From the NCBI RefSeq assembly GCF_964355755.1, contig NC_092680.1:3906001-3970000 (forward strand): 64,000 nucleotides of DNA, written 5' to 3'. Positions within the stretch are counted from its first letter, which is position 1; every line of letters begins with the position of its first letter. The notes below the pieces were generated by a model. That model had not been told where the DNA came from and searched no databases. It saw only the letters and a program-made list of their open reading frames with translations. Source of the stretch: Antedon mediterranea (Eukaryota; Animalia; Echinodermata). The translations under genes were made by a program, and so were the position numbers. Positions 9,614 to 49,805 of this stretch are shown in pieces.

Positions 9614-12301
9614 ATGGAAATGATATTTTATTTTTCAATATTGGTTCTATTGACAGCATTTTTTCAAGTAACCGACAGTAAGAGTTTCTTTTTAAATTTA
9701 AATTAATCTATTTAGTTAATAATTTTTAAAGAAGAACGTTTGAATATTAATTTTGTCCTAGTGTTTTTGTGTCATTGTATGCTAAAATAATTAATTTTAA
9801 CGAAAAAAAGTTATATTTGTTAATATCACGAACTTGTATAAAATAATCAATGTTGATTGAACGAGTTGCACTGTGCATTTATATACTCCAAAACGTTCAG
9901 AATTTAGGATGAAATAAATATTTATATATAGGACGACGATTAGATACCTGACTATAACGCTAAAGCTTGGTTCCCACTAGAACGTAACGCAAGGACGTTA
10001 ACGCAACGCAAGCGTTTTAACCATGACAAGCGAAGTTATAGACAGTTAGCAATCACAAGCGAATAAGCCATTGCTTGTGATTGGTCAATTCACTTGCGTT
10101 GCGTTACGTCCTTGCGTTGCGTCGCTAGTGGGACAGGACGTCGACAGGAAACCAGCCTTTAGTTTACACTAGGATGCGTAAACCTAGGTAGGGGTCCGGG
10201 ACCGCGACAGAACGAGAACGGATGGGGACCCTCTTTTATCTGTCTTGAGTGGTATGTGCACTATATAAATATTGTTATTAATATTTGTTATTATTAACGT
10301 AAAAGTAATTTGAACAATCACAAGCGATGGATTATTCGACCTTATTTGACCAACTCTCTTGCGTTGCGCTTACGTCGTTGCGTTTGGTCCAAGGTAGAAC
10401 CAAGCTTTTAGGCGGTAAAACACAATTGGAAGACTTTGGTTGGTGAACTTCAGATCTCCTGCAGTACTTTACCCAACTGAATTTTATAAAATCCACCATC
10501 TTTAGCATTTGTATCTTACAGGTCGAACATTAAAATTTTACAACACAACATCCTCATATGGTTATCTCGAATTAACGCATAATGGAACGTGGAGGTATGT
10601 CTACGATCAAGATTGGGATTCTATAGACGCACAAGTTGCCTGTAAAGAATTGGGCTATGCTGGTGTAATAGAGGAAAACAAACCTATGAGAAGTTCTTCT
10701 ACAGACAGTGGAAAAATTGTCAACAATTTCAGGTGCAGTGGAAAAGAAAAATATTTAAGGCAATGTCCATATGACTTTGTAGTGGCATCGGCTATGACGT
10801 GGCATCGTGTTTACCCAATATGTGTTCCGATCCTTACAGGTATGATAGCATAGCTTATTTCAAAATGTTAATTTAAACATAAGTTATAATAATAAATAAA
10901 AAGTAGTTTTAATAGCAACCTAATGTGTTTGTCTTACTCTAAGTCTGGAGACATGTACTGAATACTCAGTACATCTTCGAATACATAAAGACACAGCATT
11001 ACTTTTATTGGAAACTGTTGTTGATATACTAAGCATTAAGTTAACTCTGCCTAATTGATGTAATGATTATACTCAGTACATCTTAAAATACAAAAACACC
11101 GACGTACTTAGGATTTTATTTATTACAAAATGTTCTTGATATAGTAAGCATTAGGCCTAATTTAACTCTGCCTAATCAAAATTAATTTTATCATTAATTG
11201 TGCTCCGGAAAAAGACAATACAAACATATAGAGAATTTACTTCACAGCTGAAAAATACTTGCGATTCCATCCATCTGGATCAGAAATAACAAATAGATAT
11301 TGGGGAACGGTTGAGATTTTATATGACAACAGCTGGAAACCTATTCGGAACACGGGTTGGAATATAACAGAAGATATTGTAATCTGCCGACAACTTGGCT
11401 TCATAGGTGCTATAACCGGTAATCATACAAATAATACGCCTGGAAACCGCCACATAGAACCAGTCTTTGATTCCCTGAGATGTAACAGTACTGAAGACAC
11501 CGTACTGGAATGTCAACATGGAGAATGGTTAAAGAATAGTTCTAACGGAAATGCTGCTAATGTTACTTGTATTCCACTTTATAAATGTAAGATAAACATG
11601 AATTTATTCTTTCTATTCGTTAATCTTAGGATTTGTTTTTAGGGTAGATTTTATGCCAGCATCATGAACATATAGCACGTCCATATTGAAAGATGGTACT
11701 GTTTTACCTTCATAAATTTTATATATTTATTAGGCTAGATGAAAATGGTTTTAATCACGTCAGAATAATAATATTAGTTAATAAATGGACGAAAGTATGT
11801 AGTAAGTATTTTAAAGTGGTGGAAGTTTATTTGATTTCTATCTCTTTCTCCTTCAATGTAATGGGTCATCCACTATTAGATCTAAGTTTTTCTCAAGTTT
11901 GAATTATTGTTAATCAACAGCTGAAGAAAATGTACAGTTTCGATTGCTACCACAAGATTCTAGAATGACGTACGCGGGCCGTCTTGAAGTGAAGTACAGT
12001 GTTGGAGACATTTGGGGCAGCGTGTGTAACACAGAGGTGGACATACAGACGGCAGATATAATCTGTAGTCAGCTAGGCTTCTTTCAGGGACCAGTAGACA
12101 TAACGAATTATGCAGAATACGGACAGGGAACCGGGTACCATGTCTTTCAACAATTGAAATGTACAGGCAATGAGAAGAATCTGAAAGATTGTCAATTCTA
12201 TGAAGTCATAGATAGGTGGTGTCTTCATGACAATGACGTAGCCGTGACGTGTATTCCAATGACTGAAGGTCCAACAATAATTATTATAGATTCATTTTTC
12301 T

Positions 12302-12337
<36 letters not shown>

Positions 12338-15300
12338 GTTAGAATATTTTTGTGCAAATTATTTATACATTTTTATTTTTCTATTTTATCTCCACATTAA
12401 AAACCACAGAAGCAAAGCCAAACATGACTATCAAACTTGATGGTAGTACGCACTTCTACGAGGGATATGTAACAATGAAGTACAGTGACAGTACTGGTTA
12501 TGGCACTATTTGCAGCCGGGGGTTTACCAAGACTACTGCTGATTTAATTTGTAAAGAGTTGGGATTTACTAAAGGTGCCTTCAAATGGTACGTGAAGGGG
12601 AAACCATCATGGGTACCCTCAACTGGTATCATTATGATGAGCAACATTGATTGTGATAACAGTGCAACTAAATTGATTGACTGCAGATACAGTAAGCCCG
12701 GTAATTGCACTCATGCAGAGGATGTAGGCGTCGTTTGCATTCCAATAAAAGAGGGTAAGTTTCTGTGACGACGCTTAAGGTCGAAATTCGGAGGAACTAT
12801 CAGTAGCGCGATAAACATTAATGTATTAAGATCAAACAAAACTGAGCGATACTTGGAAACATAATAAAGATAGCAACACATGTAATTTTATCTGCCACTC
12901 CAGCACACATATAAATAAACCAAATCTAAACTTACGTAAATGGTTCTGAACTGATACAAACTACCAGATTAGCTTATAGCCTTCATAAAGGAAGGAGATA
13001 TTAATATGTCCTTTTATATTCCTGTTGCTTCGTATTATGCAGATTATAAGACAATGTTAAATGACGGCAAACCGGGAGGCTACGAAGGAAAAGTTGCAAT
13101 TGGAAATGCAGACGAAGTTGTTTACCTCTGCCCTGATGACTGGACTAGGTACGAGTCCTCTGTAGTTTGCAGTGAACTGCAATTTGCCGATGTACTGTAC
13201 GAAGAAAAAAACCCTTGGCAGGACAAAGTAAACCTATCATTCCCTGAACTGATTATTACCTTTGACTGTTATGATATGCAGACTAGTCTGTTTGACTGTC
13301 GGCTAATATTAAAAAACAGCACAAATTGTCAGACGAAGAAAGGTGTACGCGTTGAATGCGTACGTCACCTTCCAGCATTTTTTAACGAGTCGGCAAACAC
13401 TACTGACATATTAGAGAATGTTGACGCTTTCTTGAAAGAAACAAGTTTAGCCGGAAACCTGACGTCGGGAAGCTTTGGTTACTTCGGTAATATAACGATT
13501 CATTACCTATTGCATGCCTTAAATAATGTATGAAAGGTAGTAGTAAAGTAGTGTGCTCAGGATACCAATGATGGGATGATTTTAAGACCACAATTCTTAC
13601 TTTGGTAACGTAACCCAATAGTTAAACAATTACTGAAGAGGAGTTCCCACAGGCATAATATACATTTGTTTTGTATTCGCAGATCAAGAGGTTCACATAT
13701 ATCCTCTATGAAGTCACGCTATACTGTTTTTAATTTTATTATATCATTCGTCTTTCGATCAACTTTATTCACAGTATTTGTCAATTTCGCTTAATAGACA
13801 GACCTTCAAACAATGCTGCTAGTGTATAGCACGGGGTCTCTACTTCTTTTAGGTCAAACGCAACAACATGAACAAATATAGACGTGTTTATAATTCTTTA
13901 AGATGACCATCAACAAACTAAAGTAATTTATACAAAATAATAAATCATATAAACTGATTTTTCAGTCGTGGATGCTCCAACAATGAATGATATGAAAACG
14001 CTAGAACTGCCGTTTGGTGATCCACTTCAATATGAATTTGAAGAGAATTTGGAAACACAAATATCCAGTAATGGTTAGTAGGTCTACGCAATTTTCGGCT
14101 TTGTTCTCACTTTGGAGGCAACGGAAATACCTAAACGCAACACAAGTGAGTTGGCCAAACATGACACGATGGATCATTCAAACAGCACTGTCGCTTGTGA
14201 TTAGTCGACTCACTTGCCCTGCGTTGCGTTTATGCGCAAAGACGTAAGTAGCAACGCAAGCAAGCAATCAACAGTTATGGATTATTCGAACTGGTTGGTT
14301 GTGATTGGTCAATTTTCCTGCGTTGACTTACTTTTTTCGAGCGTCCTAGTGAAAACCAAGCTTAAATGGAGACCAAGCTTTATAATCACCTTTCATCATC
14401 TTCATAATCATCTAGAATAACATTATCATAAACATAAATCGTCAACAACGCATCATGTTGTCGACGTCGTCATAATCATTATTGTCATCATTATCAAATT
14501 GAAAACAATCATCGTAAACATTTTACGATTGCAAAGCCTAGTCTTTTTACATTGGCAAATTTTCTCGACTGACTTTGTCATGAAAATGTTTCCAAAAGTT
14601 GCTGTAGTGTAGGCAAGTTGACAAACTTCGCAGAACTACAGAAAGCAAGTTTGCAGAAGTCTACACTAGCAACGAATTAGCAAAAAATCTCGAGCAAACC
14701 CCGATTCTCAACCTGTAATTTTAACCAGTTGACTAATAGTAGGTCTAATTCGTTGACGATTGTAACTCGTAACGTAATGGCGAACGGTTTACGATTATAA
14801 CCCATAACGTTACCGTTTACGGATGTTTGTTGTTGTTTTTTCAGAAGCAATCCAGTCCACTTCGTCCTACCTATTGTCGCTTGAACTTGCTAAATTAAAC
14901 TCTTCGGATCAGGTACCCGTTGCTGAAACTAGCGATAGGTAATATTTAATATTATGATAAACTAAAAATAAATATTTATATTTGGGTGTTTTATAGTATT
15001 CATATTATGGTACCGTATTAGCATTTTTAGCCATTCTTTCAAATAGACTAGAAGTTTTTTTTACAAGTTCAATCAGCCTTCATTTTGATTTCAAGTAGAT
15101 TCCAGCTCCAATATTACATATGACACGCCATGTTTACCAAAATCTGTTTTACGAGGCATTATAGGTTGTCCATGGCATAACAAGAAAAGTATACTATGTG
15201 AATTATAAATAGAAGTAGGTAACGTTGGTAATGTCTCAAAGTTTCGATTTTTGCCAACTATACAAATAACTTTACAATATATTTTTTCTTTAAAATTTAC

Positions 15301-18300
15301 AGTATAAATGTATATGCGTATCCAATTTCACCAATATTTGGCTTGGACCTTTTCACATCAGGCGGAAACAAAACATCAACAAAAACGAGTTTTATTTTTC
15401 CTAAAACTATTGTGAGTAATCACGGTCGAATTTATACTAATAATTATAACAGAGGCAATAGAGGCATCCCCTATAATAGATAGCGAGTACTGTAAATAGA
15501 TAGTGATCATGTTAGTTGACTATGCATTATGTAACTGTAGGAAGATAGCTTACCTATTTTCTAAATTAACTTAACCTCTAAATATATCTCTTAAAATAAA
15601 AGAAAAATAATATTTATTTTCTATTAAAACAAAATCCGAAGAGCTTCGAACCACCAGAGCTAGAGCTAAGAGTACTCAACGAGCATTACCTGTTATGCCA
15701 CAAAGATACTAGTACGTGACTGAATAGTTGGCAATAGTCTATACTTATACGTGCTTTATATTACGTCATTCTAGTCGTTACGTCATAAATATGCATTAGC
15801 CATTGAAGCCGATTTTTAAGTACAGACAAACCCACCTAAAACTTGTAAATCGAATCTGGATAGTTGACATTTTAACAATACCATAATTATCGTAGATGAT
15901 TATTTTAATTGTTTTATGATGTAAAAATATCATCATCGGACAAAAATTGCCAAACTAAACTCAAACGCATGCGCACAATAAATTAACGTCACGTCACATA
16001 GGTCCTAAAAGTCGTCGTAAATTGAAAGCGGTTGATAACCGAACCGAATAAATTGTAACTAGCTACATGTTCTCCTTTTTACATAACATTGTTGGAACAC
16101 TCTTTCAACAACATAGTTTTTGGATGAAAGATATAAATTGATTTATTTTAGATACTGCCGTTTGAGGTGTCAGATAAATCGAAATTGGTCAGTGAGATAA
16201 TGTGCATGTACTTTGACTATTTAAAGAGGTAATAATATATGCATATTGTATATGATCATGATGGTAATCATCATCATCATCATTAGCATTATCAATATCG
16301 CTATATCGTTATTATTATCGTTATTGTTATCGCCGACGTCGTCATCATCATCGACAACATTGTAGACAACATGGAAAAGAACACGTAACGTTGAGTTTTT
16401 ATTTTCAAACTGCGTTCCAAGGCAGCATCTAAAGACAACAATATTTGGAAATTTGGGGCTAAGACAAACCCACCCTGCCCCTGACAGAAGAATGGCATAA
16501 CCAATCATGCCATATGGCTCTGATAGTTAGGTGGTACTATTAAAAACCAACATAGCCATCAATGCACAGAATGTACTAGGCATATTGTATTATGTATTTG
16601 TAGCTCATGGTCAACGGGAGGGATCGTCACTGCTATAGATGTAAACGGTTCAGTAACATGCAAGAGTGAACATACAACAAGCTTCTCAGTGATGATGCGA
16701 GTTACAGAGGTAGGTATTGGAATAGCAGGCGTATGCGTAATAGTGGTATGTTTACGTTATTCCGCCGGTAATACGTAATACCGGTACTGTATACGTATTA
16801 ATATAACATATATATACTTTAAGTAATACCGTATGCATACGTTACGTACCGGTATATATATGTTACGTAACACCGGTAATACATACGTTAAATAATACCG
16901 TATGCATATGTTACGTAATACCGGTATGCATACGTTACGTAACACCTGTAATGCATACAGGTTACTTAATACCGGTATTACATAATTGTGTTAACCATAA
17001 TGTATACGTAATACTGGCATATGATAAACGCAATGCTAGTTTTAACAGGGAATTTGACCCTTCTCTTGTATTAATAATGATCTGGATATTATGACTTAAA
17101 ATTAATTTAATTAACAAAAAATAATGTTCTACAGTAATAAACTTCGTAATAAATGTACCGTTGTAAATGTTTGAATTAATAATATATAATTACTCATCCA
17201 TTCTTTAAATGTTTTTACAAATGGAAACACTGCTTTAATCACAATTTTCTTTTTATAGATAAAGGATACGTTTTTTCAGCAAGTATTAAGCTTTATGTCA
17301 AGTGCATTACTTGCCGTGTCTATTGTGATGTCAATACCAACTTTTGTAGTTTTAATTTACATTAGGTAAGACTGGTACTCAATATTGTTTAGTTGTCAGT
17401 GATGGTCCTAATAATGCATAACAAGTTTTATTTGATAGACTAGAACACACTAGGAAACGTTACCCTTTTTTTGTGTTGCAAAATCGGAGTTTCCCCAAGT
17501 TTGCAAACTGAAGTTTGACTCCTGCACGCTTGTTTTCTGCTGTTTCCCGAAGCTTGTCAACTGGTCACCAGCAAACTTTTATCGGGAAAACTCAAAGTGC
17601 AAACAAAAAGAAAAACTTGCCGGTGTAGTAGAAATTTAACCATAATTCTGTTGGAAAAAGTTGTCGTTGTCTTTCAGAGAACTCAGATTTTCGACACGTT
17701 TCGTCATTGTTCGAAATACGATTTTGTGTGTTTGTATTCGAGACTGTTTGTTCATAGTGTCAAGCATGGTACCGGCAATAGACGTAAGTTAGACGTATCT
17801 TGAATGTGGTCTTACTCTGTGGTCGACCAATACTTCATGCTTGAGGTGATATTGTGTGTTCTTTTTCCTGAAAAGCGGACTCATGTGTATAACAAAGGAC
17901 ATTCGGAAGCAGGGAATAGAGTAGATTTTGTAGGATGGGATGGGGGGGGGGGGGGGGTGGGGGTTGTAGGATGGGGTGGGGAAGATTGGGGAAGGGTTAT
18001 ATGTTCTTAAATGCTATCGATGTTAATACTAAGCAGATTAGTACAATTTTGTCGTTTGTGTAAGTATATTTAAACTAGAAATAAATACATTAGTTTTGCT
18101 CTAATCATTTTAAAATTAGATTATGTGTATTGCAATCGGATCAATTCTTCACTACATGTCCATGTGTTCATTCATGTGGATGGTCATATGGTCAACTGAT
18201 ATTTGGCTAAAAATCACCTATCCTTATCGTAACCACGACGAAAATAAACGCATTTACCGTCCTCTGGCGTACCTTTCACCTGTACTCATAGTAGCAGTTG

Positions 18301-20766
18301 GTTTAGGAATATTCCAAGACGGTTATATAAGTAATGAGTAAGTTATCGCTTCCACAACATTTGTTTATCAGGTTAGTTAAACGTAGATAGATGCGGTATC
18401 ATGCCTTTGTAGTATCGCTTCTCTTTCAGTAACAGGCCTACCATAGCATATAACACTATTAACTTAACTCTAAATAATCTTTCGCTATTTCAAAAATACT
18501 ACTCTTGAGGTTTGAACATTGAGAATATATTAACAGATATATGTTATATTTCATGATCTAAATTATTTACATTGTTAATTTGACGTTGTATTTTTTAAAA
18601 TGTTATCGACTAGAATTGACTAGAATTCTAACTTTTCTTTTGATATAATTATTGAGTAACCAAAAAAAATGTGATTTGCCCATATATGGACATGATTATG
18701 TCATATCACAACCATATTTAAGCATATCGCTAACAAATTTGTGCACATCACACTTTTTTTTGTCAAACTAGTTTGATAGTGTAAACAGAGCTTTACTCTG
18801 TAAAGTTGAAATATTCGTTTTATTTTAGATGTTGGCTTGACATACAGAGTGGTTCTATTTACCTTTTCTTCATACCAGTCATCATTTGTATCATGGTTAG
18901 TATACGGTATATACCCATGGTATATCTTTCATATATTTTTAGACAGGCCTATTGATGAATTGCTTGAAACATTTAATTTGGGTTATAATCTCGACATAAT
19001 GCTTGTTTGCACGATAATGTCCACAATCTTCAAGTTTCCTCTGTCCTAATTGGAAATAGGTATCAACACACTATGTCTCCTGATTTTCAGAAAATTGTTG
19101 TTGACGTCACAAGACTCGAGTTATCTGTATCTTCAATATGGGAAAAAATAATTAAATAGCACGCCCTCTGTCGATCTTTCCCCTTGATTTATTATTTGGA
19201 AGGCCTATTCTTTACATTTGCTTTAATGTCTCTTTATTCTGTTTTTAGGTAATAGCCTTCGAATTAGTCTGTGTGGCATGGAAGACCTACAGAAAGTCAC
19301 AGGGAGCTATTCATCCTGCACATGTGCACACTAAACTGGATAATACACTGTGTGTTACTTAAAACCTTACCCGACATGTTTTATATTTGAAGATATGATT
19401 TGGTCTTTTCTTGTCATAATACTACTTTTCTTTGCGAGTTTTTTTCTAATGTGGTTCACAATTTATATCTTACTATGCATCATTTATGAGGATTTCATAC
19501 CAATCTCTTCTTCCAAAGAAAATTTGCAAACTCTAATCTTAAATATATAGAATACTTCTCCAACGACAATACATTTTTGAGTTATGGAGCATGGTGCATA
19601 GTGCAAACACAAGCAACAAGAATATTACATTATTCAACATACGTTGCATGAAACCATAAATAGATTTCCGTATATACTCAATGAAGGACTACTATTTTAT
19701 ATCATTTTGGTTAATCCCAGAGTTACCTTTTACTCTTACTCCTCGAATGAATTTCACCTATTGTCTTTTGCTAGGAACATAGCCAAGAAATTCCTACCGT
19801 TGTCCGTGGTTCTTGGCGTGACTTGGATCATCGGAGTATTAACCAGTATTCGAGGAACTTTAATATTTGACGTCATTTTCGTGTTGAGCAACAGCACACA
19901 GGGGGCCGTTATTTGTCTTACCCAGTGCCTTTTCAGCAAACAGGTTTGTATTTTTCTCTTCTTGTTCTCACGGAAAATTATTCATGAGCTTTAACAAAGT
20001 GGGCGGAGCTTACCGTGAAATTCCGTCGTCTTAACTTTTTGAGAACGATTATAGTTTCCATTTTTCCGTTTACAGAGAATGACTAAAAATAATGTACATA
20101 TAACCTTAAATATACAGTTCAATCAAATTACACTTAAATAATAAATAAATAATAATTGAAATTCTAATTTAATTGTTTAATGAAATAACATTTTTATTGT
20201 GTTATATTATTTTATTGTTTGGTAAAGTCTCTGTTGACGAGACGACCATGGCCAAGCAGATGATTCACATTTTTAGTTGCGTGGACGCGACTCAATAGTT
20301 CACTATGTCGGTCGGTCGGTCTGTCGGTCTGTCGGTCTGTCTGTCGGTCCGGTATCACTATGCGTTTTATCGCTTTTTTGTACTTTTTGAACTGTTTTGA
20401 TGTACAGAAAAGTTTTAAAGTACATTACTTTTTGAAAGTTCATTTTTTTCTGAGAGCACGCGACTTATGGCTGTTGGCCTTGTTAACACACAAGTTTGAT
20501 TCTGAATTCCCATTAAGCAATCTTTTCTGATCAAAGTTTCAGAATAATAATAAATAGAAACCGAACAAAAAGTAGTAGAAGGGCAACACTTTATAGCATA
20601 GTTTTTAAATTTAAAAATAATTTAAACTAAATCGATATGATTACGTAACAGTCTTGTTTGGTATACAGTACATTAAATTCGTGTTTCGTTTACTGAAAAT
20701 AATTATTATTTAAATTTTCTACAGGTTAGGAAGGCATTCAAAGAGCAGAAAAATCGCCGGAAATAA
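9614..20766 (+). CDS. Adhesion GPCR 1: signal peptide, 5 SRCR domains, compact GAIN, GPS, 7TM (~1051 aa, 18 exons)
   Basis: Signal exon 9614-9677 (MEMIFYFSILVLLTAFFQVTD). SRCR exons 10522-10839, 11248-11586, 11921-12268, 12410-12754, 13043-13486. GAIN exons 13966-14067, 14845-14938, 15303-15411, 16152-16228. GPS exon 16604-16709 (WSTGGI...CKSEHTTSFSVMM). 7TM exons 17259-17365, 17678-17783, 18120-18337 (LHY...FMWM), 18829-18895 (CWL), 19249-19349, 19775-19943 (LGVTW, NSTQG). Last exon 20725-20766 (VRKAFKEQKNRRK*). Phases join into one 3156-nt ORF. Confidence 0.9.
9963..10160. mobile_element. MITE family with TIR AAGCTTGGTTCCCACTAG (PIF/Harbinger-like or TA-target type)
   Basis: The same terminus and internal AACGCAA/TTGCGTT and CAATCACAAGCG motifs recur at 21399-21604 and ~40132-40321. 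Fragments lie at ~10315-10410, 14130-14363, 33980-34045 and 56134-56245. Confidence 0.7.
15634..15701 (-). other. tRNA-derived relic (possible SINE head)
   Basis: The - strand has an A-box-like TGGCATAACAGG and a B-box-like GGTTCGAAGC at tRNA-like spacing. No complete cloverleaf seen. Confidence 0.3.
16245..16360. repeat. Degenerate (ATC/ATT/GTC)n trinucleotide tract
   Basis: Directly visible; it explains the low-complexity - strand ORFs here. Confidence 0.8.
16735..17020. repeat. Degenerate minisatellite built on TTACGTAATACCGGTATGCATA
   Basis: About 8-10 imperfect copies in the intron after the GPS exon of gene 1. Confidence 0.75.
20270..20484 (+). mobile_element. Helentron-associated (DINE-1/HINE-like) element; inverted relic at ~42355-42450
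   Basis: T-run start, a repeated ACGCGACT motif, an internal (GTCG/GTCT)n microsatellite and a short 3' hairpin GGCTGTTGGCC followed by TTGTT. Confidence 0.55.
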
Positions 20767-37200: not shown

Positions 37201-37817
37201 AAATATGGCCAAGTCTTTCCTACCGTTGCTGGCAGTTTTTGGTATCACTTGGATTCTGGGTATTTTTCTTGTTATCGGCGGCACCATTATATTTGATTTA
37301 TTATTTGTTATTGTTAATGGTCTCCAAGGTTTCGTTCTTTTCCTTTCTCAATTTCTTTTTAGTAAACAGGTAAATATAAATTAATATTTTTTTTTTAATT
37401 TGACAATGTTATTGCTATTTCAAGCCTATGCTGTTTGTTCTTGAATTCGAGTGTTAATTAAGAGAACCACATTAGGTAAATCTTTTCATAACTGGAACTC
37501 ATAAATACACTATATAATTTCAACTTTAGCATAGACCTACTAAAAACTGTTGAGCCAAGGTAGTACATTACCATTTGTTATTAAACTGAAATTGTCTAAT
37601 TAACCGTCTTATATGAGGTATATAATTACTTATTTTTTGTTTCGGTAATATTTTCAAAAACATTTTCAATGAGATCATGAAGTAAGTCTTTAAACAAAAA
37701 CTAGATTTTTATTTTAAATTTTGAAATAAAAATTAAATGTTTATTTTAAATTTTGATACTAAGGTACATAATGCTTGGACAGAAAGCAAAGAGCGTGCAA
37801 CCACAAGGACATTATAG
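22284..37817 (+). CDS. Adhesion GPCR 2: signal peptide, 14 SRCR domains, compact GAIN, GPS, 7TM (~2053 aa if all 27 exons are used)
   Basis: Signal exon 22284-22356. SRCR exons 22794-23102, 23415-23744, 24219-24563; nine near-identical copies at 24835-25167, 25347-25685, 26482-26814, 26987-27319, 27518-27850, 27999-28331, 28482-28814, 29295-29627, 30294-30626; then 30866-31201 and 31424-31867. GAIN exons 32227-32325, 32764-32851, 33174-33282, 33372-33448. GPS exon 33850-33961 (WSSEGL...CESEHLTSFSIMM). 7TM exons 34270-34370, 35006-35117, 35478-35704, 35934-36000, 36392-36498, 37201-37369. Last exon 37764-37817. Phases join into one 6162-nt ORF. Confidence 0.9.
24835..30626 (+). repeat. Tandem array of nine near-identical SRCR exons (eight of 333 nt, one of 339 nt)
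   Basis: Each copy reads E-S-x4-5-LKL(T/S)G...GLVQLSY...GT(I/V)CG...CNE(L/V)GFYQGAY...IRC.G.ESRLI(D/E)CMYEFV..C.H..DVSVVCVP with intact AG/GT sites. The six-cysteine pattern is group A type. Confidence 0.95.
26076..26114 (+). ncRNA. Minimal type I hammerhead ribozyme motif of the Penelope-like-element type
   Basis: TGCA-CTGATGA-A-GGGC tagtgtt GCCC-GAA-AGCT-C^TGCA. It has an intact CUGAUGA/GAAA core, a 4-bp helix II and a 4-bp helix I; helix III is reduced to the palindrome AGCT. Predicted cut after C26110. Confidence 0.7.
36629..36960. mobile_element. Non-autonomous TTAA-target DNA element family (Kolobok-like); related pieces at ~38310-38520 and 57282-57555
   Basis: Termini TTAA|AGATGTATTG and GGGG(G)A(C/T)AATATATC(T)|TTAA. 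Shared internal TTTTAATA(A/C)AGTTAATCACT and GTGACATTAAAAT occur at three loci. Confidence 0.55.
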
Positions 37818-39381
37818 GGCCCTCATTAAAGAAATACGATGAACTGGAGGACAGAAATCAAAGAGCGTGTAAAAACTAGACACTTTTAGCGGTCTTATTG
37901 AAGAAATACTTTAACTGGCGGACAGAAATCAGAGAGTGTATGGCCACAAGACACCGTAATAGAATAATTTACATTCTTGCAAATAGAAATAATCTATATA
38001 TAAATAAGCAAGTAAAAAATTTACCGAATATCGTATTCGTAGATGGTTACAGCAGGGAAGAGTTAATTTTAACTCTTCCCTGGTTACAGTTACAGTTACA
38101 GTTACAGTTAAAAAACAAACCATCGTTCATTTGAATTAGTAGCTCTCCGACATAAATCAGAATCTATTAGGAGTAGGCGGAATTAGAGAACATACTTTTT
38201 AAAATAAATGGAGAAGTTGTAAGATAAGATTTAAACGATTTAGTGTCTCTGTGACGCATGTGGCGTATCAGTATGGAAAGGGTAAACAAAATGAAACAAA
38301 TATAAAAATGTATAATTTAAAAATGAAGATTAATTAAATCCGACTTTAAATAGGTTATTTTGTAGTTTTAATACAGTTAATCACTCTTGTAGAAAAAAAA
38401 AAGAACAATGTTTTTACTAATAAAATGACAAAGTAAATAACTATTAGTGACATTAAAATAGCATGTTGAACAAAAGAATGTGTTAAGAAGTCTTCTTTCA
38501 GGGGGATAATATATCTTTAAGCTACTTTTATTTCTTAGATTCGTATTACTGTAACGTACCTATATTTTCTATTTAATAATTTAGTAAATTGTATTGTAAA
38601 CTTTAGAAAAATACTTTATTTTAGTAATTTACATTTATTCTTAATGAGTAAAACTAAGAATAAAAACATGGACATTATTAAGCTCAACTAACTAGGAGAA
38701 TTGAAAACCTTGCTATAATATGCGCATCCGTATTCATATTTCCATCTATTTTTTGGCAATTTGAAAAATGGACATCAAATTAGGAATGTTGCATTCGTGC
38801 AGATAAGTTAGCCTAGTCGAAAACAAGGTTTAGATTAATGTACTACTATTAATTGTTGACTCAGATCAAGAATTGAAAACAACATCGACAACAAGTCGTC
38901 GTCAGGCTTTTCAATTCAACATAAATTGTATCTTAGACGACAACCACAACGTATTGTACACGTAGCAACGTAAACATTGCAGGTCAACAATTTAAATTTA
39001 TTAATAGTAATTAATTATTAATTATAGTCTATAGCCTAATGATCAGTATCGTATCATATTTCATTTCGTAACGATTGAAGAATCGTACTAAAGACTAATT
39101 GTCTACTATTGTTGATTTGATTTCATTGTCATTAATAAAAACTAAACGATAGCTATTGTTATACTGTAGGCCTATATTAAATTTATAAGCAAGAATTGTA
39201 ATTATCTTATCCAAGATGTAATTTCATCAAAGAATGATAGAGTGCCGACGTGCCCTTTGTCAATTGCAGTATTACTATTTAATACAATAGTTTAGGGTCG
39301 TATATTTTATTTCGCTAGTGACCATTGCCGAAACAGTTGTGGAAAGGTTAGACCTAAGTGGATACCATACATGAAATAAAC

Positions 39382-42300
39382 ATGTTACATATTATACAAA
39401 TTCATCTCGTCATGTTAATGGCTACTGTGATATTTGGAGATCTGTTATCATCAGACAGTAAGTAGTAATAGTAAGGTCTCCCTTATACTAATTTTGAATA
39501 TCAAGAGACGTTTTAATAAGCTTTTACAAATGTTTTACTTGGTGCAATATTTTTTTGTATTTCGATGTTTTTTAAGGGGCAACTGACTTTTTGAGTTATA
39601 GTAATTGTTTTGCTTTAGTTGCCCCTGACCATTGTGCTTTGTTTCTGTTCTGTATCTGTTTATTGGTCGAATAAATAAATGAAATGAAATGAAATGAAAG
39701 TCCAACTATTTGAAAGGTGCTAGTTTCACGAAAGTTACTATAGATTGTGAACATTTAGTTAAAGTTACTTTAAAGACAGACTTACATTTAAACAACTATG
39801 TGTTCTGAAATATAATATTTATTATTTGAAGTCGTTACCAGTTACATTGAACTACTACTAAGAATAAATAATTGTGGTATAGGCCTATTCATTCATTCAT
39901 TTATTTCATTTCGGATAGTACATCCATATACAAATCATACAAAACAGAGAAAACAAATCACCAGGAAATAACAGTGGCAACTTCCACAAAAACAACCTAC
40001 AGTATCCCAAAAATCAATTTGCACCAACGCTGATTGGATTGTTGATTATTATATTAACAACTATAGGCCTATACTATGAACAACTGCCATGAATTCTGTT
40101 CTTAAAAGGTCCTCCAATATTCATAGAATTCAGTGTGGTTCCCACTAGCGACGCAACGTAACATAACCCTACGACGTATTGCGTAATCACAAGTGTGAAC
40201 CGAGGACGCAACAGTGTTGCAAACATCGCAATTTGATTTCACGCAGGCGGGGGCAAACGCAGTTATTGGAAGGGCATTTTCCTACGTTGCGTATGTTGCG
40301 TCGCAAGTGGGAACCAAGCTTAAACTGTATACATGCTTATAGATGAGACCAGGCTTGTCAACGCAGACGATCACCAGTATAGAGGACGTCTACAAACACT
40401 AGTGGATAGTGACTGGTTACCGGTCTGTTTCACAAGCTTAAACGACAAATCTGCCAAAGTTGCGTGCAAGGGGTTTGGTTTTATTGACTTCGACAGTTTT
40501 ACAAAAGTAGAGGTGGCTCAAATAGCGAGTGAGACAGAAGTGTACGATTGTAATGGGTGGGAACGTATGCTCAGCAGATGCAGCACGAAAACTAAACGAA
40601 ATGTTCAGTGTGACAAAATTGAACTTATTTGTACAGCTATCGAATTGGGTAAAGTTATGCTTATATCTAAAATATATTGAGTTATAACAACAATGACTAG
40701 GGGCTTCACTAGAAGCGACGAAGACATGTTTGTTTTCGTTATTTGAAAAGAAAAACAAACTAATTTGAAATTTATTTCGGTTATTTTTATTATGTTACTT
40801 TCAGCCAGGTATGGCCCAGTGGCTTTATAAGTTCAAACTCCGTTGCAACAGTCTAAAAATTAAATAAATAGAGAAGAAAAGTTTGTAACAATGGTTTAAC
40901 GAATTACACTTATCTTTTTAGATTATTATTATTATATAGATATTTGTAAAATTACTAGGCGATCAAAGGTGGTTCAGTGATGTTGATGAGATGGTTCTAT
41001 AACCTCCATGGCTGGCTATTCTGTTAGATGTAATAACACGTACTGGAGATTGTATTCTCGATTGTATTAATACTTACAAAATGCATCAAAATTAACAAAT
41101 TTAAATATTCCTATTAATGTTTTAGAAATGTACTATATTTCACGGCAAATATACAACATAATTCATATACACTGTCCTTAATAAATTACTCTCAATTATT
41201 TTTTTAAATTTTCATATTCTTTATCTAGATTCAGAATACTTACGAATTAACCAAGCAGATGAACTTCACAAGGGACGACTAGAGCTGAAGTATAACGATA
41301 GGTGGGGGCCAGTTTTCAATGAAAACTGGGGGCTGTACGATTCCAAAGTGGCATGTCGTCACCTTGGATTCATTGGTGTAATTCACCATGATCAACAGCT
41401 AAGATCAGGTCCAAGAGTTACTCTACCCAATGTTGATGACTTCAAATGCAAAAGTACAGAAAATGTTCTACATGATTGTCAACATGGGGGATGGGGGTTG
41501 CCAGCGAGTGCAAACTCTACTGATGTGTTACTAACATGTATGCCGATATACAAATGTAAGTTTTCTCATTAAATTAATCAATTCTTTAGAACCGGAATGA
41601 CATGATGGTAATTTGTTCAGTGTGTTAAAGATGAAAGCTTATGTGATTTTAATGGTAACAGAAGCAAAATCAACTTGATCCTTTCTGATCTATGTTGAAT
41701 CATGGAGGAAAAGGCTTCTATAAGACTATGTTTTCCAATTGTCCATACAAATACAATGTTTCACAAACAAAATAATGATGCTTTTCTTATTATTTTCCAC
41801 TGCAAAAAACGACAGATGTGGATTTCATGTCGACCACCTGTCTTCTGAGCTGTTAAATTTACATGAATGTTCATTTGCTTAGCTTTCTTATTCTTAACTT
41901 TTTGTTTACAGCCGATGGTAATTTTTCTTTCCGTCTTAATGACAGTAAGAGTCATGCATTTCAAGGAAGATTGGATATAAAGTACAGTACTGAGGAAAAA
42001 TGGGGTAGCGTATGCAATGATGACGTCACTATTCACACTGGACACTTTATCTGCAACAAGCTTGGCTTCATGCAAGGGGCAGCGAACATTAGCAGAGACG
42101 CAGCATTTGGCGCTGGAACTGAAGACATTGTGCTTAGTGATTTGTTCTGTAGTGGCTCGGAACAAAATCTTATTGATTGTAAATATTCAAAATATGTTAG
42201 TAAGGCATGTGGTCATACGAGTGACTTGTCTATTCAATGTGTTCCAATTACAGAAGGTAAGTTAACTATTCTATTTTTGAATAGTGTGTTAAACGCATTC

Positions 42301-45300
42301 CTCTTCCATCTACTTTTGCCATAATTTTACAATTAATATGGTATATATATACATGGCTGCAGTCGCGTGCTCAAGTTAGTATTTACCGACTAACCGACCA
42401 CCCGACCGACCAACCGACCGACCGACATAGTGAGCTGTAAAGTCGCGTGTTGAATACATTTAAATATTTTATTGTTTTAGAAATGTACTATTATTCACGG
42501 CAAATATACAACATAATTCATATACCGTATGTCCTTAAAATAAATTTGTTTTTATTATTTGAAAAACATCATACTGTAGTAGTGAACTTTGACCGAATAG
42601 AATGTTGCATCAGTACGCAACAGTTCATTAAGACAAACATCTTTTATATTTTGTTGTAGAATCAAAACAAAACATAACACTTAAACTAACTGGAAGTGTA
42701 CATACTTACGAAGGATTAGTCCAGTTAAGCTACGTAGACAATTCTGGATTTGGAACAATCTGTGGCAAAGATTTTGAAATTGAAACTGCTCACATAATTT
42801 GTAATGAACTCGGCTTCTACCAAGGAGCGTATTTATATTCGTTAGGAGAAAGTGATATTGGAAAGGACAGCATTATAATGCTTAATAAAATAAAATGCTA
42901 CGGGAATGAATCTAGGCTCATTGACTGCATGTATGAGTTTGTTGACAATTGTACGCATGAACATGATGTTAGTGTCGTTTGCGTTCCAATTACTATGGGT
43001 AAAGTATTGCTTGTAATTTTCTGGTTAAAGTAGAATGTTTATAAATTAATTTTGATAAAATATTATATTAGTTAAAAATGATAAATTTTGATTTGATGAT
43101 ATCTTGGCAAAATTAGATCAACATCGCCAAACACACACTTTTAGAAAAATACTTTGAAATATGGAAATTTAATTTGCGTTATTTGTATTGCAGAAAGAGA
43201 AAAAGATATAGAAGTTAAATTGACTGATGACTGGAGGAGTTATGAAGGCTTAGTTCGTCTTAACTATTTTGATGGTTCAGGATTTGGCACAATATGCGGT
43301 CATGAATTCAGCATTACTGTAGCCAATGTGATCTGTCGGGAGATTGGCTTCTACAAAGGAGCATATTCATTTTCATTAGGCAATGTTACTGAGGAAGAAA
43401 GTATTATCATGCTAAACGAAATACAATGCACTGGGAATGAAAGTAAACTCATTGACTGTAATTTTATTTACGTGGATGAGTGCACACATGCCGATGATGT
43501 CAGTGTCGTCTGTATACCGATTGTTGATGGTAAAGTATTTTAAAATAAGTTTGTATATCACATAATATTATTAGCAACATCACCGATAATAGTTTTTTGG
43601 TAGTGAGGTATATATAAAACAAATTTTAAAGAAGATTAACAATAACAACTTGTACTGTACTTAAGTTTATTATGATCAATTATTGTTTTTGTACATCAAC
43701 ACACGTGATAGTAAATCAGCCAATCATATCTGTGCATTGCATGAACCTAAACTATTTGTTGTTTTCTCTCACAGAGTCGTTCGTTACATTTCTGTTTGGA
43801 AAATTTGGCTTTTACGAAGGCATAGTTTCCATTTATGATGGCAAGAATTTCAATCAAATCTGCTTAGATAGTTGGGGCATGCCCGAATCCGATGTAGTCT
43901 GCAAAGAGTTAGGCCATCAAGGTGTCCTTTATTACGATACGAATAAGCCGGACAAACACCTTCCGGAAGCCTATAAAAACCCGGTCTTCAGCTTCATGTG
44001 TAATGGTTCCGAGTCATCCCTCTTTGATTGCTACTTGTCCCGTAATGAATCTGGTGGTTTGTGCATAATACAAGATTATGTGGTACGAGTGGAGTGTATA
44101 CGTTTCTTACCAGATTTCTTCAACACCAGTGCTAACACGAGTGAACTGCTGTACAATGTAGATTTCCTACTTATTGATTCCGAAGAATCCAGCAACCTGT
44201 CATCGGCAAGCTTTGGATATTTTGGTAGTAAATTAATATACTTATTTGCTGTTTGGTGATTGTTCTGTTCTTTTCTTTTCATATACTCCCGTTACACACC
44301 TTATATCGAAGCCTGCTACTACATACTATCACTACATACCTTACTGCCGCTACTTACAGTAGGCCTACCTTACTGCCGCTACTTACCTTACTGTCATTAC
44401 TTACCTTACTGCTGTTACTTACAGTACCTTCCTTATTGCCGCTACTTACCTTACTGTCACTACTTACCTTACTGCTGCTACATACAGTACCTTACTGCCA
44501 CCCATATACCTCACTGTTGCTATTATTCATACTGCCGTTACATACCTGCTATTACACCTTTACCGTCGCTACATAATTTACTGCCGCTACAGTACTGTCA
44601 TTCCATTCTTTACTAACGTTACATACATACTGCCACTCTATTCTTTATTAACGCTACATACATACTGCTACTCCATTCTTTACTAACGCTACATACATAC
44701 TGCCACTCCATAACGTACTGATGTTATCATTATACCCCATATACCTATAGAGTAAATACCAAATATGATAAGGCATGTGGTGCGCAGACTGTCATTTCAA
44801 TCTATCACATAGTTTGGAAGCTTGTGAGAATTAGTTTTTAGTGATAGTGTTGATGATAACAATTATTTGTCAGTTACTAGTTGTAATTGTTTCATTATAA
44901 TATAGTTTCTTTTTAGTTATTGATTCACCGACCTCAAATGACACTAATTTTCTGAAATTGGTGGATTCGGAGCCGTTTATGTATACCTTCTATCCTGAAC
45001 AAACTCAATTTTCAAGTAAGTAGCACCGATTCGTTTCTATCGACTAAACTGTACTAAACTTTATTGTATCTCTTGTATCGTTTTTTACAGTGTGCTTTTA
45101 TAATCATCATTTCATCCCAATAGTGTTGTCATCAAAATTGCGGCGATCATCACAAAAACTAAGCCTTTCTAATTAATAAATTTATAAAAATAATACTTTA
45201 TTATAACAGACTTAGAATTGGCTACGTCGTCTTATCTGATGTCTCTTGATCTTTCAAAATTAAGTAAAAATGAAACCGTTCCATTTTTGGAAGAAAGGTA

Positions 45301-48300
45301 AACATCAGAATTTATTAATATAAATCAATTAAGTACAGATCGTAAAATGACAGTATCGTTAAGTTATAGAATAAACTTGTTAGACTCTTCGTGATTTAGG
45401 GGTCAATGGTCAGTTCGGCCTAGTTATTTTACCCAGATGTTATAGGCTTCAGAGACCAATTATCACCAACTTAAATAATGATCTCTAACAATCTTTCACA
45501 ATCTTGTTGAAATAGGAAGTTGTTTCCATTTACAATGTTGTTTCTAAAAATGTAGTATTTAAAAAAACTCAACCTTCAAAAAGGTGTTCAGGAAAATAAT
45601 AATGAATATTTATATAAATTAGCATAGTACGACTGATGTTTTATTTTATCAGCTCAAATACACATATCTACGCATATGCAGGCATCTTTGGTTTAAACGT
45701 ATACTCGCCACTTGGAGAGATGTTGTCTGCGAAGGCACGTTTCACATATCCTAACAATTTGGTAAGTTTATCAGTATTATTAGTTGGTTTTGTTTATTCA
45801 AAATGTATCGTAATACTATTTTTTTGTTATTTACCCAAATAATTAATTTAATTATAAGTAAGTCATTGTTGATTTAGTTTATGTTGTTATAATAACAGGG
45901 AGTTGTCTCTGATAGTAATGTGTTTACTCAAAATACTGATTTTCTCTTCTATACTTTTCTCTAAGTATATTCAACTTGTAAGCCCAACATTGGTTGTATT
46001 GAATACATATTCAAATATCTAATAGAACATTTTTAATTTACGTTAATTTATAGACACTTCCATTTACGATTGATGTTCCTAAAGGGTCGACGTTAGAACC
46101 TATATGCACGTATTTTGATCCAATTTTGGAGTAAGTTTATTTTTTTCGATTTGCAAAAGACAAGTAAATTTTTCAAAAAACATAAATATATTGAGTCGAG
46201 CATATATCATTATCATAAATTGCTAATTTGTAATCAGTAATGTTATAAATTTGTTTAAAGTATCTTAATGCATAATTATAGTTTTAAGATTAAACAACAA
46301 TGAATTTGATCTTTTTTCTGTTAGAATTTGGTCATCGGAAGGTCTAATAACCGAGGAGGTAAATGGAACAATTAATTGTGAAAGCGAGCATCTAACAAGC
46401 TTTTCAATAATGATGAAAGTTACAATACATCCTCAGGTAGGCATCGTTACACTAGAGAGACGCAACGCAACAACGTGGACTTTGATCAACTAGATTGCGT
46501 TGCCAACGCAATCTAGTTGATCAAAGACAAGTGTCAGTTTAATATAATACTATTGTGGAAAAACTGTAGTAATTAATTCACTTTCGATGCACTTTGTAAT
46601 TCCCATGATCAAATGCACATTCAAATTGAAATTATATAGGTTTATAAAAATATGTTGTTATCAACTTTAGGACACAAGCTGGGAGACGATTCTGTCGGTT
46701 ATGACATATCTCTGTCTTGGATTATCGATATCTGTTTCAATTCCTACGTACATATCGTTCATGTATTTCAGGTAAGTTTTTGTCAAAGACTCGTCACAGA
46801 ATTACATGTTTATTTCATTTCCGAATTAAAACATTACTTCATGGTTCTTGTGGTAGAATATTGCTCGGAGAAGGACTATAAACCGTAGGTCCAGTGTACA
46901 CATCTAGCTCATGTGTACTTTAAAGAACCTAGTACATCTTTCGAGATGAGTAGGGGGTTATCCCTGTGTACTATAGTACATCACAGCCATTGGTCATAAC
47001 TGGGCCCTTTGGAAGACCAGTCCTTGACTGAAGATGTCACCCAGTATAAATAAATAATAAAATACATTGGGTGGGTTTAAATAACTGTACATACATACAA
47101 TGATTAAACACCTCTTTAAAGATTTCAAGCATGTTATCATTCAAATTATATGGCCTCCCTGTTTTTTTCATTATTTTCTTCAGAGCGCTTCGTTTAAATA
47201 CAAGATTTATCATCGTACGAAACATTGTACTTTCTGTTTGCCTGAGAGACCTTATGTTTCTTTTTACCGATTATGTCACGGGTATGGCAAGCAAGGTTAG
47301 TAGACATAATTATTACAATAGAAGATACATTTTCCTATGATAATACACAGTGCCTTCTTATAACTGTCTTGCAAAGCTAATACTTCATGGCGAATAATCA
47401 TCTCAAACGCTAGTTCAACTTTAAAAAAATAGCAGATTATATTTTGAGAGGACTAAAGAAAAGAACGAAATATGGGTGTCGAGTCGGGAGTTCGGCTTCG
47501 AGATGTTATACCACACTTAGGCCTAGGCTAGGCTAGGCTTAGGGGTCGTCGGTTTCGTGTTATGGGTCGTCCAATTCGAGGTCGCCCGGGTCGTTGGGGT
47601 CGTCCAATTCGAGGTCCTCGCTTTCTACACACCCGTGTCGGGTCTGGTCCCACTGCACTCGAAATAGACTCTATTAATAATTATATGTTGACCTTATGCC
47701 CTCACAACAGTGTTACTTGTACTCGCTAAACTCCCTATGGTTTATTTTTCATTATAACATTATCTTGTATCTATTTCAAAATAATGTTATAATTTAAAAA
47801 TCAAAACTTCTAATTTATACAGTAGTCGATTTCTAACTGTTTTTGTTTTTAACTACTTTCAAATAAAAACATATCATGTCTTTTTTCATAATTACAGCCA
47901 TCGTACCTTTGTGAGGTCACAGGTGCACTGCTCCAGTACATGAGCACGTGTGCGTTTCTCTGGATGCTGTGCGCATCGACTGACATATGGTTGAAAGTTC
48001 ACTTTCCGTATTTTGATCATACCAAAAATATACACGTCTACCGCCCCCTATCCTACATAGCTCCAGTAGTGATTGTTTGTGCAACTATCGGAGGTTTTAG
48101 AAGTGGGTATATTGATGAATACAGGTAAGTGACTTTAATCTATGATTATTTTCTTATCTTTGATTGTCACACGAAGAGAAACATTAATTGTGATTTTTAT
48201 TTATTAAAATCCAACATATAAACATATATTGGCAAGATCAATTTACCGTTTCAAAAAACATTTACCTTTCAGTTTCAGCAATCATTGTGATATTTATTTA

Positions 48301-49501
48301 AGCACTATTTTATTTATTAATATTTATTTCATATTTTATCAGCTGTTGGCTCAGCATCACCAGTCGATCTATGTTTGTTTTTTACTCGACGGCGGTATTT
48401 CTGATTCTAGTAAGTTGTTATACGGTTGTCGCGGTCACGAAATGTAATTTACTATCCAAGCTATACGGACTTTCCACATATAAAACGCCCGTGTTGTAAA
48501 ATCTGACATTTTTCTATTCGATGTAAAAGGGGTCATAAAACTATTTTAAAGAGATGAGAATTATGTACTTATATGATATATGTACTTTTAAATTGTTGTT
48601 TAACATGTTGTCGTCTACTACAGAAAATTGCCTTTTGTTGTGTAAAGTCCATGCTGATTTTTTGGGGCTAAATATATGTGGAATTGAATTGAATTGATTT
48701 GGTCTTTTTCAGCTCACTTCAGTTCAATTAGCTATGGTGGCATGTAAGACAACCAAAACGCTAAAGAATGCTGTGCAGCCAACGAACATAGAAACAACAA
48801 ATCCAAAAACCTCCAGGTACGGTACTGTTGTAGTTATCTAGTAAAAGGCTTTTCCCGTCCTTTTGATTGGATGTTGTGCAGTTGGTCCCGATGGCTGCAT
48901 GGATGACCTTTCACAAAAAAAAAAATCATCTATTATTTCTCGTGTAACATCGTGTAATATGCGATCATTCTAATATTACTTTGAACATTATTTCACTGAA
49001 AATACTTTTGTTGGTATCCTATCTGGTAAAACGGAAAAAGAATGAAGTTTATTAGATTCTTTGCGATCAGAAGGGACCGATTCATTGAATTCGGATGTAT
49101 GTTTTTATTAATTTATAATGATCTCTATCTTTTTTCCTAATTTCGTATGCATTTCTTTATTAATTTATAATGATCTCTATCTTTTTTCATAATTTCGTAT
49201 GCATTTCTTTATTAATTTATAATGATCTCTATATTTTTCATGATTTCGTATGTAATTTATTCATTTATAATGATCTCTATGTCTTTCATATAGAAATATT
49301 GCGAAGTCTTTCCTACCGTTGCTGGCAGTTTTTGGTATCACTTGGATTCTGGGTATTTTTCTTGTTATCGGCGGCACCATTATATTTGATTTATTATTTG
49401 TTATTGTTAATGGTCTCCAAGGTTTTGTCATTTTCCTTTCTCAATTTCTTTTTAGTAAACAGGTAAATATAAATTTATTTTGTTTACGAATTGTTATAAA
49501 C

Positions 49502-49546
<45 letters not shown>

Positions 49547-49805
49547 CTGATTTTCCACTATGCGAATTTGTTCGCGCAAATCGAAAGCGCCAGCTTATTC
49601 GCATGCGTAGAGAGGGATATTTGAAAGATGGAAACATGAATAACGCATGCGTATAAGCTGACGCTGTCGATTCGCGCCAACAAAGTCGGCTTGTGGAAAA
49701 TCGGCCTTAGATTTTCGCTTTAAACGACTTATATTATTTTTTTCAACCAAGGTACGTAATGCTTGGAGCGAACATATAGAACGTGTCACCACACGAACAC
49801 TTTAA
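39382..49805 (+). CDS. Adhesion GPCR 3: signal peptide, 6 SRCR domains, compact GAIN, GPS, 7TM (~1165 aa, 19 exons); close paralogue of gene 2
   Basis: Signal exon 39382-39457. SRCR exons 40343-40648, 41229-41555, 41912-42256, 42660-42998 (absent from the ORF track), 43194-43529, 43775-44224. GAIN exons 44917-45015, 45210-45297, 45653-45761, 46054-46130. GPS exon 46325-46436 (CESEHLTSFSIMM). 7TM exons 46671-46771, 47184-47295, 47898-48124, 48343-48409, 48713-48816, 49294-49462. Last exon 49752-49805. Phases join into one 3498-nt ORF. Confidence 0.9.
39570..39699 (+). mobile_element. 3' end of a non-LTR retrotransposon (L2/CR1-group-like)
   Basis: Stem-loop AGGGGCAACT...AGTTGCCCCT followed by AATAAA and a (GAAAT)n tail. 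Confidence 0.55.
40132..40321. mobile_element. MITE related to the same TIR family, with a different interior
   Basis: TGGTTCCCACTAGCGACGCAAC...GTTGCGTCGCAAGTGGGAACCAAGCTT. It ends about 20 nt before the acceptor of gene 3 exon 2. Confidence 0.7.
44300..44712. repeat. Degenerate ~18-bp minisatellite (TTACTGCCGCTACTTACC)
   Basis: Directly visible; it produces the spurious LPYCRY and LLPLLT ORFs. Confidence 0.85.
46863..47062 (+). mobile_element. 5'-truncated SINE with a Deu/Nin-domain-like core
   Basis: GGACTATAAACCGTAGGTCC...TAAAGAACC...TTCGAGATGAGTAGGGGG resembles the Deu/Nin SINE central domain as I recall it. It ends in an (AAT/AAAT)n tail. Confidence 0.5.
49105..49285. repeat. ~52-bp tandem repeat (~3.5 copies) just upstream of the TM6-7 exon acceptor of gene 3
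   Basis: ATTTATAATGATCTCTAT recurs four times. Confidence 0.8.
49503..49544. repeat. (TA)n microsatellite
   Basis: About 21 perfect units. Confidence 0.95.

Follow-up and report, generated by a model that had tools for sequence, protein, structure and literature searches.

SRCR domains have been reported on adhesion G protein-coupled receptors (GPCRs) of sponge and amphioxus, so that the architecture considered here is not new and the fusion itself would be no surprise to a specialist. In the accessible part of the sponge report, the Amphimedon queenslandica gene models Aq712029 and Aq715659 carry SRCR repeats on adhesion GPCRs, one of the two genes being placed basal to human groups I/II and an immune role being suggested only (PMC4302439). 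Likened by description alone, they share multiple SRCRs on an adhesion GPCR with the genes reported below. For Branchiostoma floridae, an invertebrate deuterostome, the available portion of the survey lists SRCR among the N-terminal domains of adhesion GPCR(s) (PMC2246102), again a likeness by description. Here we describe three such genes from the crinoid Antedon mediterranea, in a stretch of 64,000 nucleotides (contig NC_092680.1 of assembly GCF_964355755.1, positions 3,906,001 to 3,970,000, forward strand) that is referred to as the window and whose own numbering is used throughout. A preliminary description of this DNA, made from the sequence alone, had pointed to SRCR-bearing adhesion GPCRs in sponges, and the accessible text on the two Amphimedon genes bears this out (PMC4302439).

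Other described proteins resemble parts of the genes. DMBT1/SALSA, CD163 and MARCO have the SRCR fold and, as here, one domain per exon in tandem arrays, but they lack a seven-transmembrane (7TM) domain, and the domains in the window have six or four cysteines and an incomplete calcium site. The best solved-structure match of the 7TM domain is human ADGRD1 (GPR133; E 1e-21), which is alike in its agonist strand, toggle tryptophan and kink glycines. The similarity to ADGRD1 is low, however, that receptor has no SRCR, several core residues differ, and the RefSeq name ‘ADGRD1-like’ is a best-hit label. The portion of a 2026 review that is available contains no occurrence of ‘SRCR’, and the accessible text on 37 holothurian SRCR loci does not mention ‘GPCR’ and remarks that splitting and wrong labels are frequent among SRCR models (PMC13228809). 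No report of crinoid SRCR adhesion GPCRs was found in the open-access literature, although subscription papers, figures and supplements may list echinoderm cases, nor did the same literature yield an SRCR adhesion GPCR whose ligand is known.

Three tandem genes and their crinoid relatives

Open reading frames were obtained from a six-frame translation and Pfam scan of the window, and exon borders were read from the sequence and then checked by script. Three gene models resulted, in which the letters A to E denote the positional SRCR slots described below.

9614..20766 (plus strand): gene 1; 18 exons, 1051 amino acids; five SRCRs in slots B, B, C, D and E; GPS motif H-T/T; 7TM
22284..37817 (plus strand): gene 2; 27 exons, 2054 amino acids; 14 SRCRs; GPS motif H-L/T; 7TM
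39382..49805 (plus strand): gene 3; 19 exons, 1166 amino acids; six SRCRs in slots A, B, C, D, D' and E; GPS motif H-L/T; 7TM

The genes are intact, tandemly duplicated crinoid adhesion-GPCR genes with a common plan of signal peptide, SRCR array (five, 14 and six domains), short GAIN/GPS region and 7TM domain. The outer edges of the cluster, 9614 and 49805, coincide exactly with the ATG of gene 1 and the stop of gene 3, and neighbouring genes are spaced ∼1.5 kb apart. In these hand-built models every frame is uninterrupted, all introns are GT-AG and all SRCR exons are phase 1-1, while the final 13 exons repeat the same phase pattern in the three genes with lengths that differ by no more than 12 nt. 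Beyond the SRCRs, gene 1 is ∼45% identical to genes 2 and 3, which are 86% identical to each other. Alternative in-frame donors 3 nt apart occur at 31867 or 31870 in gene 2 and at 44224 or 44227 in gene 3. A tblastn search with the three models as query detected no SRCR, GAIN or 7TM pieces in the window beyond the modelled exons. All 25 SRCR-bearing frames (five, 14 and six) exceed the cut-off of Pfam PF00530, PF01825 (GPS) exceeds its own in genes 1 and 3, and PF00002 (7TM) is matched; the Pfam check proposed in the preliminary description thus agrees with the gene models, and its account of three same-strand SRCR-GPS-7TM genes with matching post-SRCR exons and no disabling lesions stands. 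Pseudogene status was considered and is ruled out by the stop-free frames and intact splice sites.

The TM3-4 exon of gene 3 (TM, transmembrane helix), used as query, gave one match among 11 candidates. This protein, P0001, is an ‘ADGRD1-like’ RefSeq entry from A. mediterranea and is identical to residues 1787-2054 of gene 2. The last SRCR exon gave one match among 165 candidates, P0002 (XP_033095245.1), a ‘DMBT1-like’ protein of 929 amino acids from Anneissia japonica. In this protein a signal peptide is followed by six SRCRs, a GPS and TM1, after which the chain ends; its identity to gene 3 is 58% across 932 columns. As a single chain, P0002 independently supports a protein in which SRCR, GAIN, GPS and TM1 are united and, together with the identity of P0001 to gene 2, indicates a crinoid family. 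P0001 as query found no match among 1286 proteins of 470-2000 amino acids, which is weak evidence. A second Anneissia entry, the TM5-7 piece P0152 (XP_033126232.1, ‘ADGRD1-like’), groups with genes 2 and 3. Together P0002 and P0152 show the same SRCR slot order, GAIN, GPS and TM1 as here but are two separate partial annotations on different contigs, with a slot-D duplication of their own and an H-T/T GPS.

An unrooted 7TM tree was built with FastTree from 152 of 158 rows (P0002, P0155, P0003, P0153, P0154 and P0156 were left out), a set without sponge, amphioxus and named human rows. Genes 1 to 3 and the Anneissia TM5-7 piece form a clade (Shimodaira-Hasegawa (SH) support 100) with which ten other receptors group (SH 99); the five of these that carry a name all come from crinoids. 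The lineage restriction suggested by the preliminary description is supported by this crinoid clade. Gene 1 branches before the Antedon-Anneissia split and the duplication that gave genes 2 and 3 is later, an order with which SRCR slots C and E agree. The ectodomains of the sister receptors include F5/8, MAM+CUB and MAM+HYR combinations, and the simplest reading would be ectodomain shuffling within a crinoid receptor radiation in which SRCRs were gained separately. Among the best 150 7TM matches, many of which are fragments, P0105 alone also bears SRCRs (four SRCR, Methyltransf_FA, GPS, 7tm_2). It has SRCR, GPS and 7TM in one chain, as here, but neither its 7TM nor its SRCRs group with the crinoid clade, and a fusion of separate origin is indicated. 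The ESM Atlas rows shown for P0002 580-929 or P0105 contained no SRCR + 7tm_2 cluster, with feature scores below 0.9 and clusters of at least 50 only. As a separate observation, P0004, P0005 and P0095, whose ectodomains are of the F5/8, MAM+CUB or MAM+HYR type, have likewise lost the TM3 glutamate.

SRCR slots, selection and ligand recognition

The features of the arrays that are discussed in this section and the next are as follows.

10522..13486 (plus strand): gene 1 SRCR exons; five in number, all phase 1-1, with the start of the GAIN region included in the last
24835..30626 (plus strand): gene 2 slot-D SRCR array; nine tandem exon copies with 81-94% amino acid identity, followed by introns of 148-796 nt
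43194..44227 (plus strand): gene 3 SRCR5 and SRCR6 exons; site of an intron-free junction in run X8

In a tree of 35 SRCR domains (IQ-TREE) the domains fall into five slots by position, named A to E. Slot D occurs once in gene 1, twice in gene 3 and ten times in gene 2 (nine close copies plus the partner of the second copy of gene 3), and Anneissia doubled the same slot on its own, separately from Antedon (support 98/93). Slots A, C and E show no duplication anywhere in the tree. Copy-number change is thus confined to the penultimate SRCR in both genera, save one extra copy in gene 1, and its independent occurrence at this position suggests that slot D is a spacer. The domains themselves are of the group A type of the SRCR superfamily, as judged from PF00530, their fold and their cysteines (six in 21 of the 25, four in the other four). 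A predicted model of SRCR4 of gene 2 (predicted local distance difference test (pLDDT) 82; two of five models exceed 80) matches DMBT1, SCARA5 and CD163 best, with a template-modelling score of ∼0.8.

Two adjacent units of the gene 2 array are 92.8% alike across 842 nt, intron included, as might be expected if the nine repeats were an assembly artefact. The copies, however, differ at 6-19% of residues, with pairwise synonymous divergence (dS) of 0.13-0.45 and nonsynonymous divergence (dN) far below it, and the introns between them vary in length. Because errors would not favour synonymous sites, an artefact is rejected as extremely improbable. In gene 3, DNA contigs of run X1 tile the stretch 44124-46724, overlapping briefly, in agreement with the assembly.

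Positive selection on the SRCRs was considered and rejected, as dN/dS lies between 0.12 and 0.44 in all 14 partitions compared between genes 2 and 3 (0.23 for the nine repeats pooled), these values being partition averages without site models. The ‘diversifying’ family of the preliminary description is accordingly not supported; diversification proceeds by exon copy number. Between genes 2 and 3 dS spans 0.08 (TM6-7) to 1.5 (SRCR1), and intron sequence is common to 30276-31875 and 42642-44232 and to 37166-37394 and 49256-49485. The patches of low dS together with the common intron sequence suggest patchy gene conversion between the two genes.

Binding by DMBT1 depends on a cation site in its SRCR8 that consists of D1019, D1020 and E1086. 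In the accessible part of the study, mutation of the site abolishes the binding of hydroxyapatite, heparin and streptococcal protein, loss of D1019 alone abolished DMBT1 binding, Asn is counted among the cation ligands, and the same site is present in MARCO, CD6 and CD163 (PMC7043408). In the domains studied here the register of this site (site 2) was anchored on the preceding Cys and an alignment with CD163, the third position being uncertain in gapped domains. The DMBT1 sequence context used for placing the positions is in part one that we assume. Site-2 acids are absent from 14 of the 25 domains, 11 have one and none has two or more, while the equivalent of D1019 is acidic in a single domain; the six Anneissia SRCR domains are incomplete in the same manner. 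The acidic cation site of the DMBT1/MARCO type is therefore complete in none of the 25 domains, and the recognition of that type envisaged in the preliminary description is not borne out. With the SRCR fold kept and the site-2 acids incomplete, the arrays present a scavenger-like fold without the conserved, proven binding chemistry. Slot C of genes 2 and 3 comes nearest to DMBT1 (N-D versus D-D), and the slot-D domains of the two genes have a net charge of -4 to -12.

These data bear on the view that the receptors are microbial or polyanion sensors, in which the arrays would bind bacteria or surface polymers, additional copies would add avidity and the 7TM domain would drive an immune response. 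The confirmed fold, with DMBT1 domains as best matches, and the tandem cluster with its copy-number change are in keeping with such a role, as are the microbe-responsive SRCR genes described for sponges and echinoderms in the available text of PMC6208332 and the N-D pair of slot C, in which, judging from the accessible part of PMC7043408, Asn may serve as a cation ligand. On the other side stand the lack of any domain with more than one of the three acids, the near absence of an acidic D1019 equivalent, the strongly acidic nature of the very domains that expanded, the absence of positive selection at the partition level and, in the available text of the sponge challenge, the fact that microbial patterns induced an SRCR gene and a GPCR gene that are distinct from each other (PMC6208332). 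A sensor of this kind is, on balance, rather unlikely; an immune function is possible, and this analysis lends it no support. A variant appears distinctly less probable still: a crinoid-specific, independently evolved pattern-recognition GPCR in which a non-canonical SRCR head would contact microbes or settling particles, exon duplication of a single spacer domain would tune its reach, and a very small GAIN and a rewired 7TM domain would relay the signal, perhaps partnered by single-pass isoforms.

Proposed tethered-agonist signalling and its alternatives

The regions that follow the SRCRs are laid out as listed here.

16604..16709 (plus strand): gene 1 GPS exon; PF01825 23.9 bits (cut-off 22.5); predicted cleavage site and tethered-agonist strand
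33850..33961 (plus strand): gene 2 GPS exon; recognized by translation, near-identical to that of gene 3; outside the Pfam scan
46325..46436 (plus strand): gene 3 GPS exon; PF01825 25.0 bits
17259..20766 (plus strand): gene 1 7TM and tail exons; PF00002 exon matches
34270..37817 (plus strand): gene 2 7TM and tail exons; the RefSeq model covers this part only
46671..49805 (plus strand): gene 3 7TM and tail exons; PF00002 exon matches

The GPS lies just before TM1, as in adhesion GPCRs. Published motifs are H-L/I-S/T for the GPS and TxFxxLM for the core of the tethered agonist. The predicted cleavage motif is H-L/T in genes 2 and 3 and H-T/T in gene 1 and P0002, the latter variant occurring in 31 of the 117 GPS motifs among the relatives matched. 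Cleavage there would leave N-terminal fragments of 771, 1762 and 875 residues for genes 1, 2 and 3, signal peptide included. The cleavage motif is followed in all three genes by the strand T-x-F-x-x-M-M, in which Met replaces the Leu of the published core. The 7TM profile PF00002 matches P0001 with 97.8 bits over positions 7-249 of 250, and W6.53, G6.50, G7.50 and the cysteines that link TM3 and extracellular loop 2 are kept in the three genes.

Between the last SRCR cysteine and the predicted cleavage site lie 189-192 residues, compared with ∼320 for a classic GAIN domain, and a stretch of this length might represent the smallest size at which self-cleavage is possible; short helical GAIN subdomains that still cleave are known from the accessible part of PMC13197933. 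The Pfam GAIN profile (PF16489) matched neither the scanned exons nor P0002. In a model of the post-SRCR region of P0002 a single long helix is accompanied by two short helices of low confidence and a series of strands, and the top nine structural rows for this model in VIA-align are all adhesion-GPCR GAIN chains (best Z 11.3, root-mean-square deviation 3.0, 158 residues aligned; ninth Z 7.8). The prediction of a GAIN fold whose helical subdomain is reduced comes from this Anneissia relative only.

The reading that we prefer, with about an even chance of being right, is that of full-length tethered-agonist receptors with a head-and-spacer SRCR stalk, activated by pull or shedding. Cleavage, tethered agonism and activation by force or ligand are assumed by analogy with other adhesion GPCRs, and the anatomy suggests the division into head and spacer as well as a ligand, protein or matrix, that is bound without the canonical calcium bridge. 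After secretion the protein would cleave itself at the GPS, with the N-terminal fragment staying held on the agonist strand. The outer SRCRs may bind a partner on a cell surface or in the matrix without the canonical calcium bridge, and the slot-D repeats would act as a spacer that sets distance or reach. A pull on the ectodomain, or its shedding, would then expose the agonist to the 7TM domain and trigger signalling.

Several observations weigh against this reading. In gene 1 two domains, both on long branches, are slot-B-like and slot A is lacking, indicating that the outer domains are not wholly fixed, and the selection on the repeats (dN/dS 0.23) suits a spacer and multivalent binding equally. 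Of the four GPS cysteines only two are kept, and gene 1 has Thr at -1. The quality of the GAIN model is modest (pLDDT 67.7, predicted template-modelling score 0.51), its input alignment was made of adhesion GPCRs, and Foldseek returned nothing for it at E<=0.001 (best E 0.006). The remaining points of this kind concern the continuity of the product and the state of the 7TM domain. No transcript joins SRCR to 7TM exons among the matches listed for run X8 (15 of 627 rows, all repeats), both RefSeq annotations break at the TM1 exon (34270-34370), Anneissia ending at the donor and Antedon starting at an internal Met, and all three genes depart from 17 of the 58 7TM columns for which 70% or more of 148 relatives agree.

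None of the sequencing runs is recorded as RNA, and the presumption that X8 is RNA is a guess. In its record 25 (depth 5) the end of an SRCR5-type exon is joined to the first base of exon 7 of gene 3 with the intron absent, which indicates splicing at the predicted site. The upstream piece was placed on the twin exon of gene 2 with five differences where the twins differ at eight sites, so that allele, mosaic and hybrid are indistinguishable. The one RNA-supported link is thus between two SRCR exons (SRCR5-SRCR6); other X8 contigs are unspliced. The link of SRCRs to 7TM in one product is drawn from gene anatomy, namely in-frame GT-AG continuity in three genes, and from P0002. If instead the locus made split products, a single-pass SRCR-GAIN-TM1 or secreted SRCR protein would accompany a separately started 7TM protein, the two perhaps pairing like Drosophila Cirl, for which functional single-pass isoforms are described in the accessible part of the report (10.1101/2023.01.11.521585). 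The break of both crinoid RefSeq models within the TM1 exon is what this would predict, and an X8 contig (44113-44482) passes the exon-7 donor of gene 3 into the intron. A stop straight after the donor is, however, found at 12 of 15 phase-2 donors here, and the RefSeq break could as easily be an annotation effect. Furthermore, each of the three genes has a short TM1-TM2 intron (312-635 nt) that is GT-AG and keeps the frame. The contigs with the Anneissia pieces measure 170 and 392 kb, so that fragmentation could explain the break, and X8 has further unspliced contigs. Split products are therefore unlikely. The stop after the TM1 donor was also considered as a selected feature and rejected on the same donor count. 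Read-through at 44113-44482 would stop after ∼10 residues, giving a secreted SRCR-only protein, and the contig may be pre-mRNA or DNA.

Among the changed 7TM columns are the TM3 E-G pair, the W of TM4, the N of TM5 and the P of TM6, each of which 120-141 of the 148 relatives possess and the three genes replace; helices were assigned from the ADGRD1 alignment and, in part, as we presume them to run. The loss of 17 of 58 conserved columns means that G-protein coupling may be atypical. Taken further, full-length receptors without the usual coupling could serve as adhesion or scaffold molecules or decoys whose 7TM domain has drifted, and cytoplasmic tails that extend just 13-17 residues past the final TM exon, like the replaced residues, fit that proposal. 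Drift is opposed by purifying selection on the 7TM domain (dN/dS 0.26, confidence interval 0.18-0.38) and by retention of the toggle tryptophan and both kink glycines; according to a review, canonical class A/B activation motifs are absent from adhesion GPCRs generally, and the TM3 change is common to all nine sister receptors shown. Receptors without the usual coupling are accordingly quite improbable, and full-length tethered-agonist receptors continue to be the favoured reading.

The DNA surrounding the cluster contains unrelated features.

87..386 (plus strand): open frame without a Pfam match, exon-like in its 3' half; possibly the end of a neighbouring gene
4940..6391 (minus strand): exons of an EF-hand protein (Pfam EF-hand) upstream of gene 1; the protein resembles a myosin regulatory light chain
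37777..37936: 72-bp tandem duplication overlapping the last coding exon and 3' end of gene 2
51175..54141: satellite directly downstream of gene 3, with 100-bp units and a higher-order period of 296-396 bp
56139..57151 and 61152..62321 (minus strand): two tandem type I phosphodiesterase/nucleotide pyrophosphatase genes (PF01663)

Short interspersed element copies of inverted-repeat character occupy introns and spacers at ∼9960-10410, 21400-21610, 40130-40320 and 46440-46530, and some bins with such copies have very high contig depth.

The gene models repair a family that RefSeq has split into ‘DMBT1-like’ and ‘ADGRD1-like’ pieces in two crinoids, and they add a likely independent fusion of SRCRs to an adhesion GPCR. 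The radiation of crinoid adhesion GPCRs to which the family belongs is worth a separate study. With five, six and 14 SRCRs, and with signalling halves that are 86% identical in genes 2 and 3, the cluster offers a natural series in which the effect of ectodomain length on adhesion-GPCR signalling can be tested.

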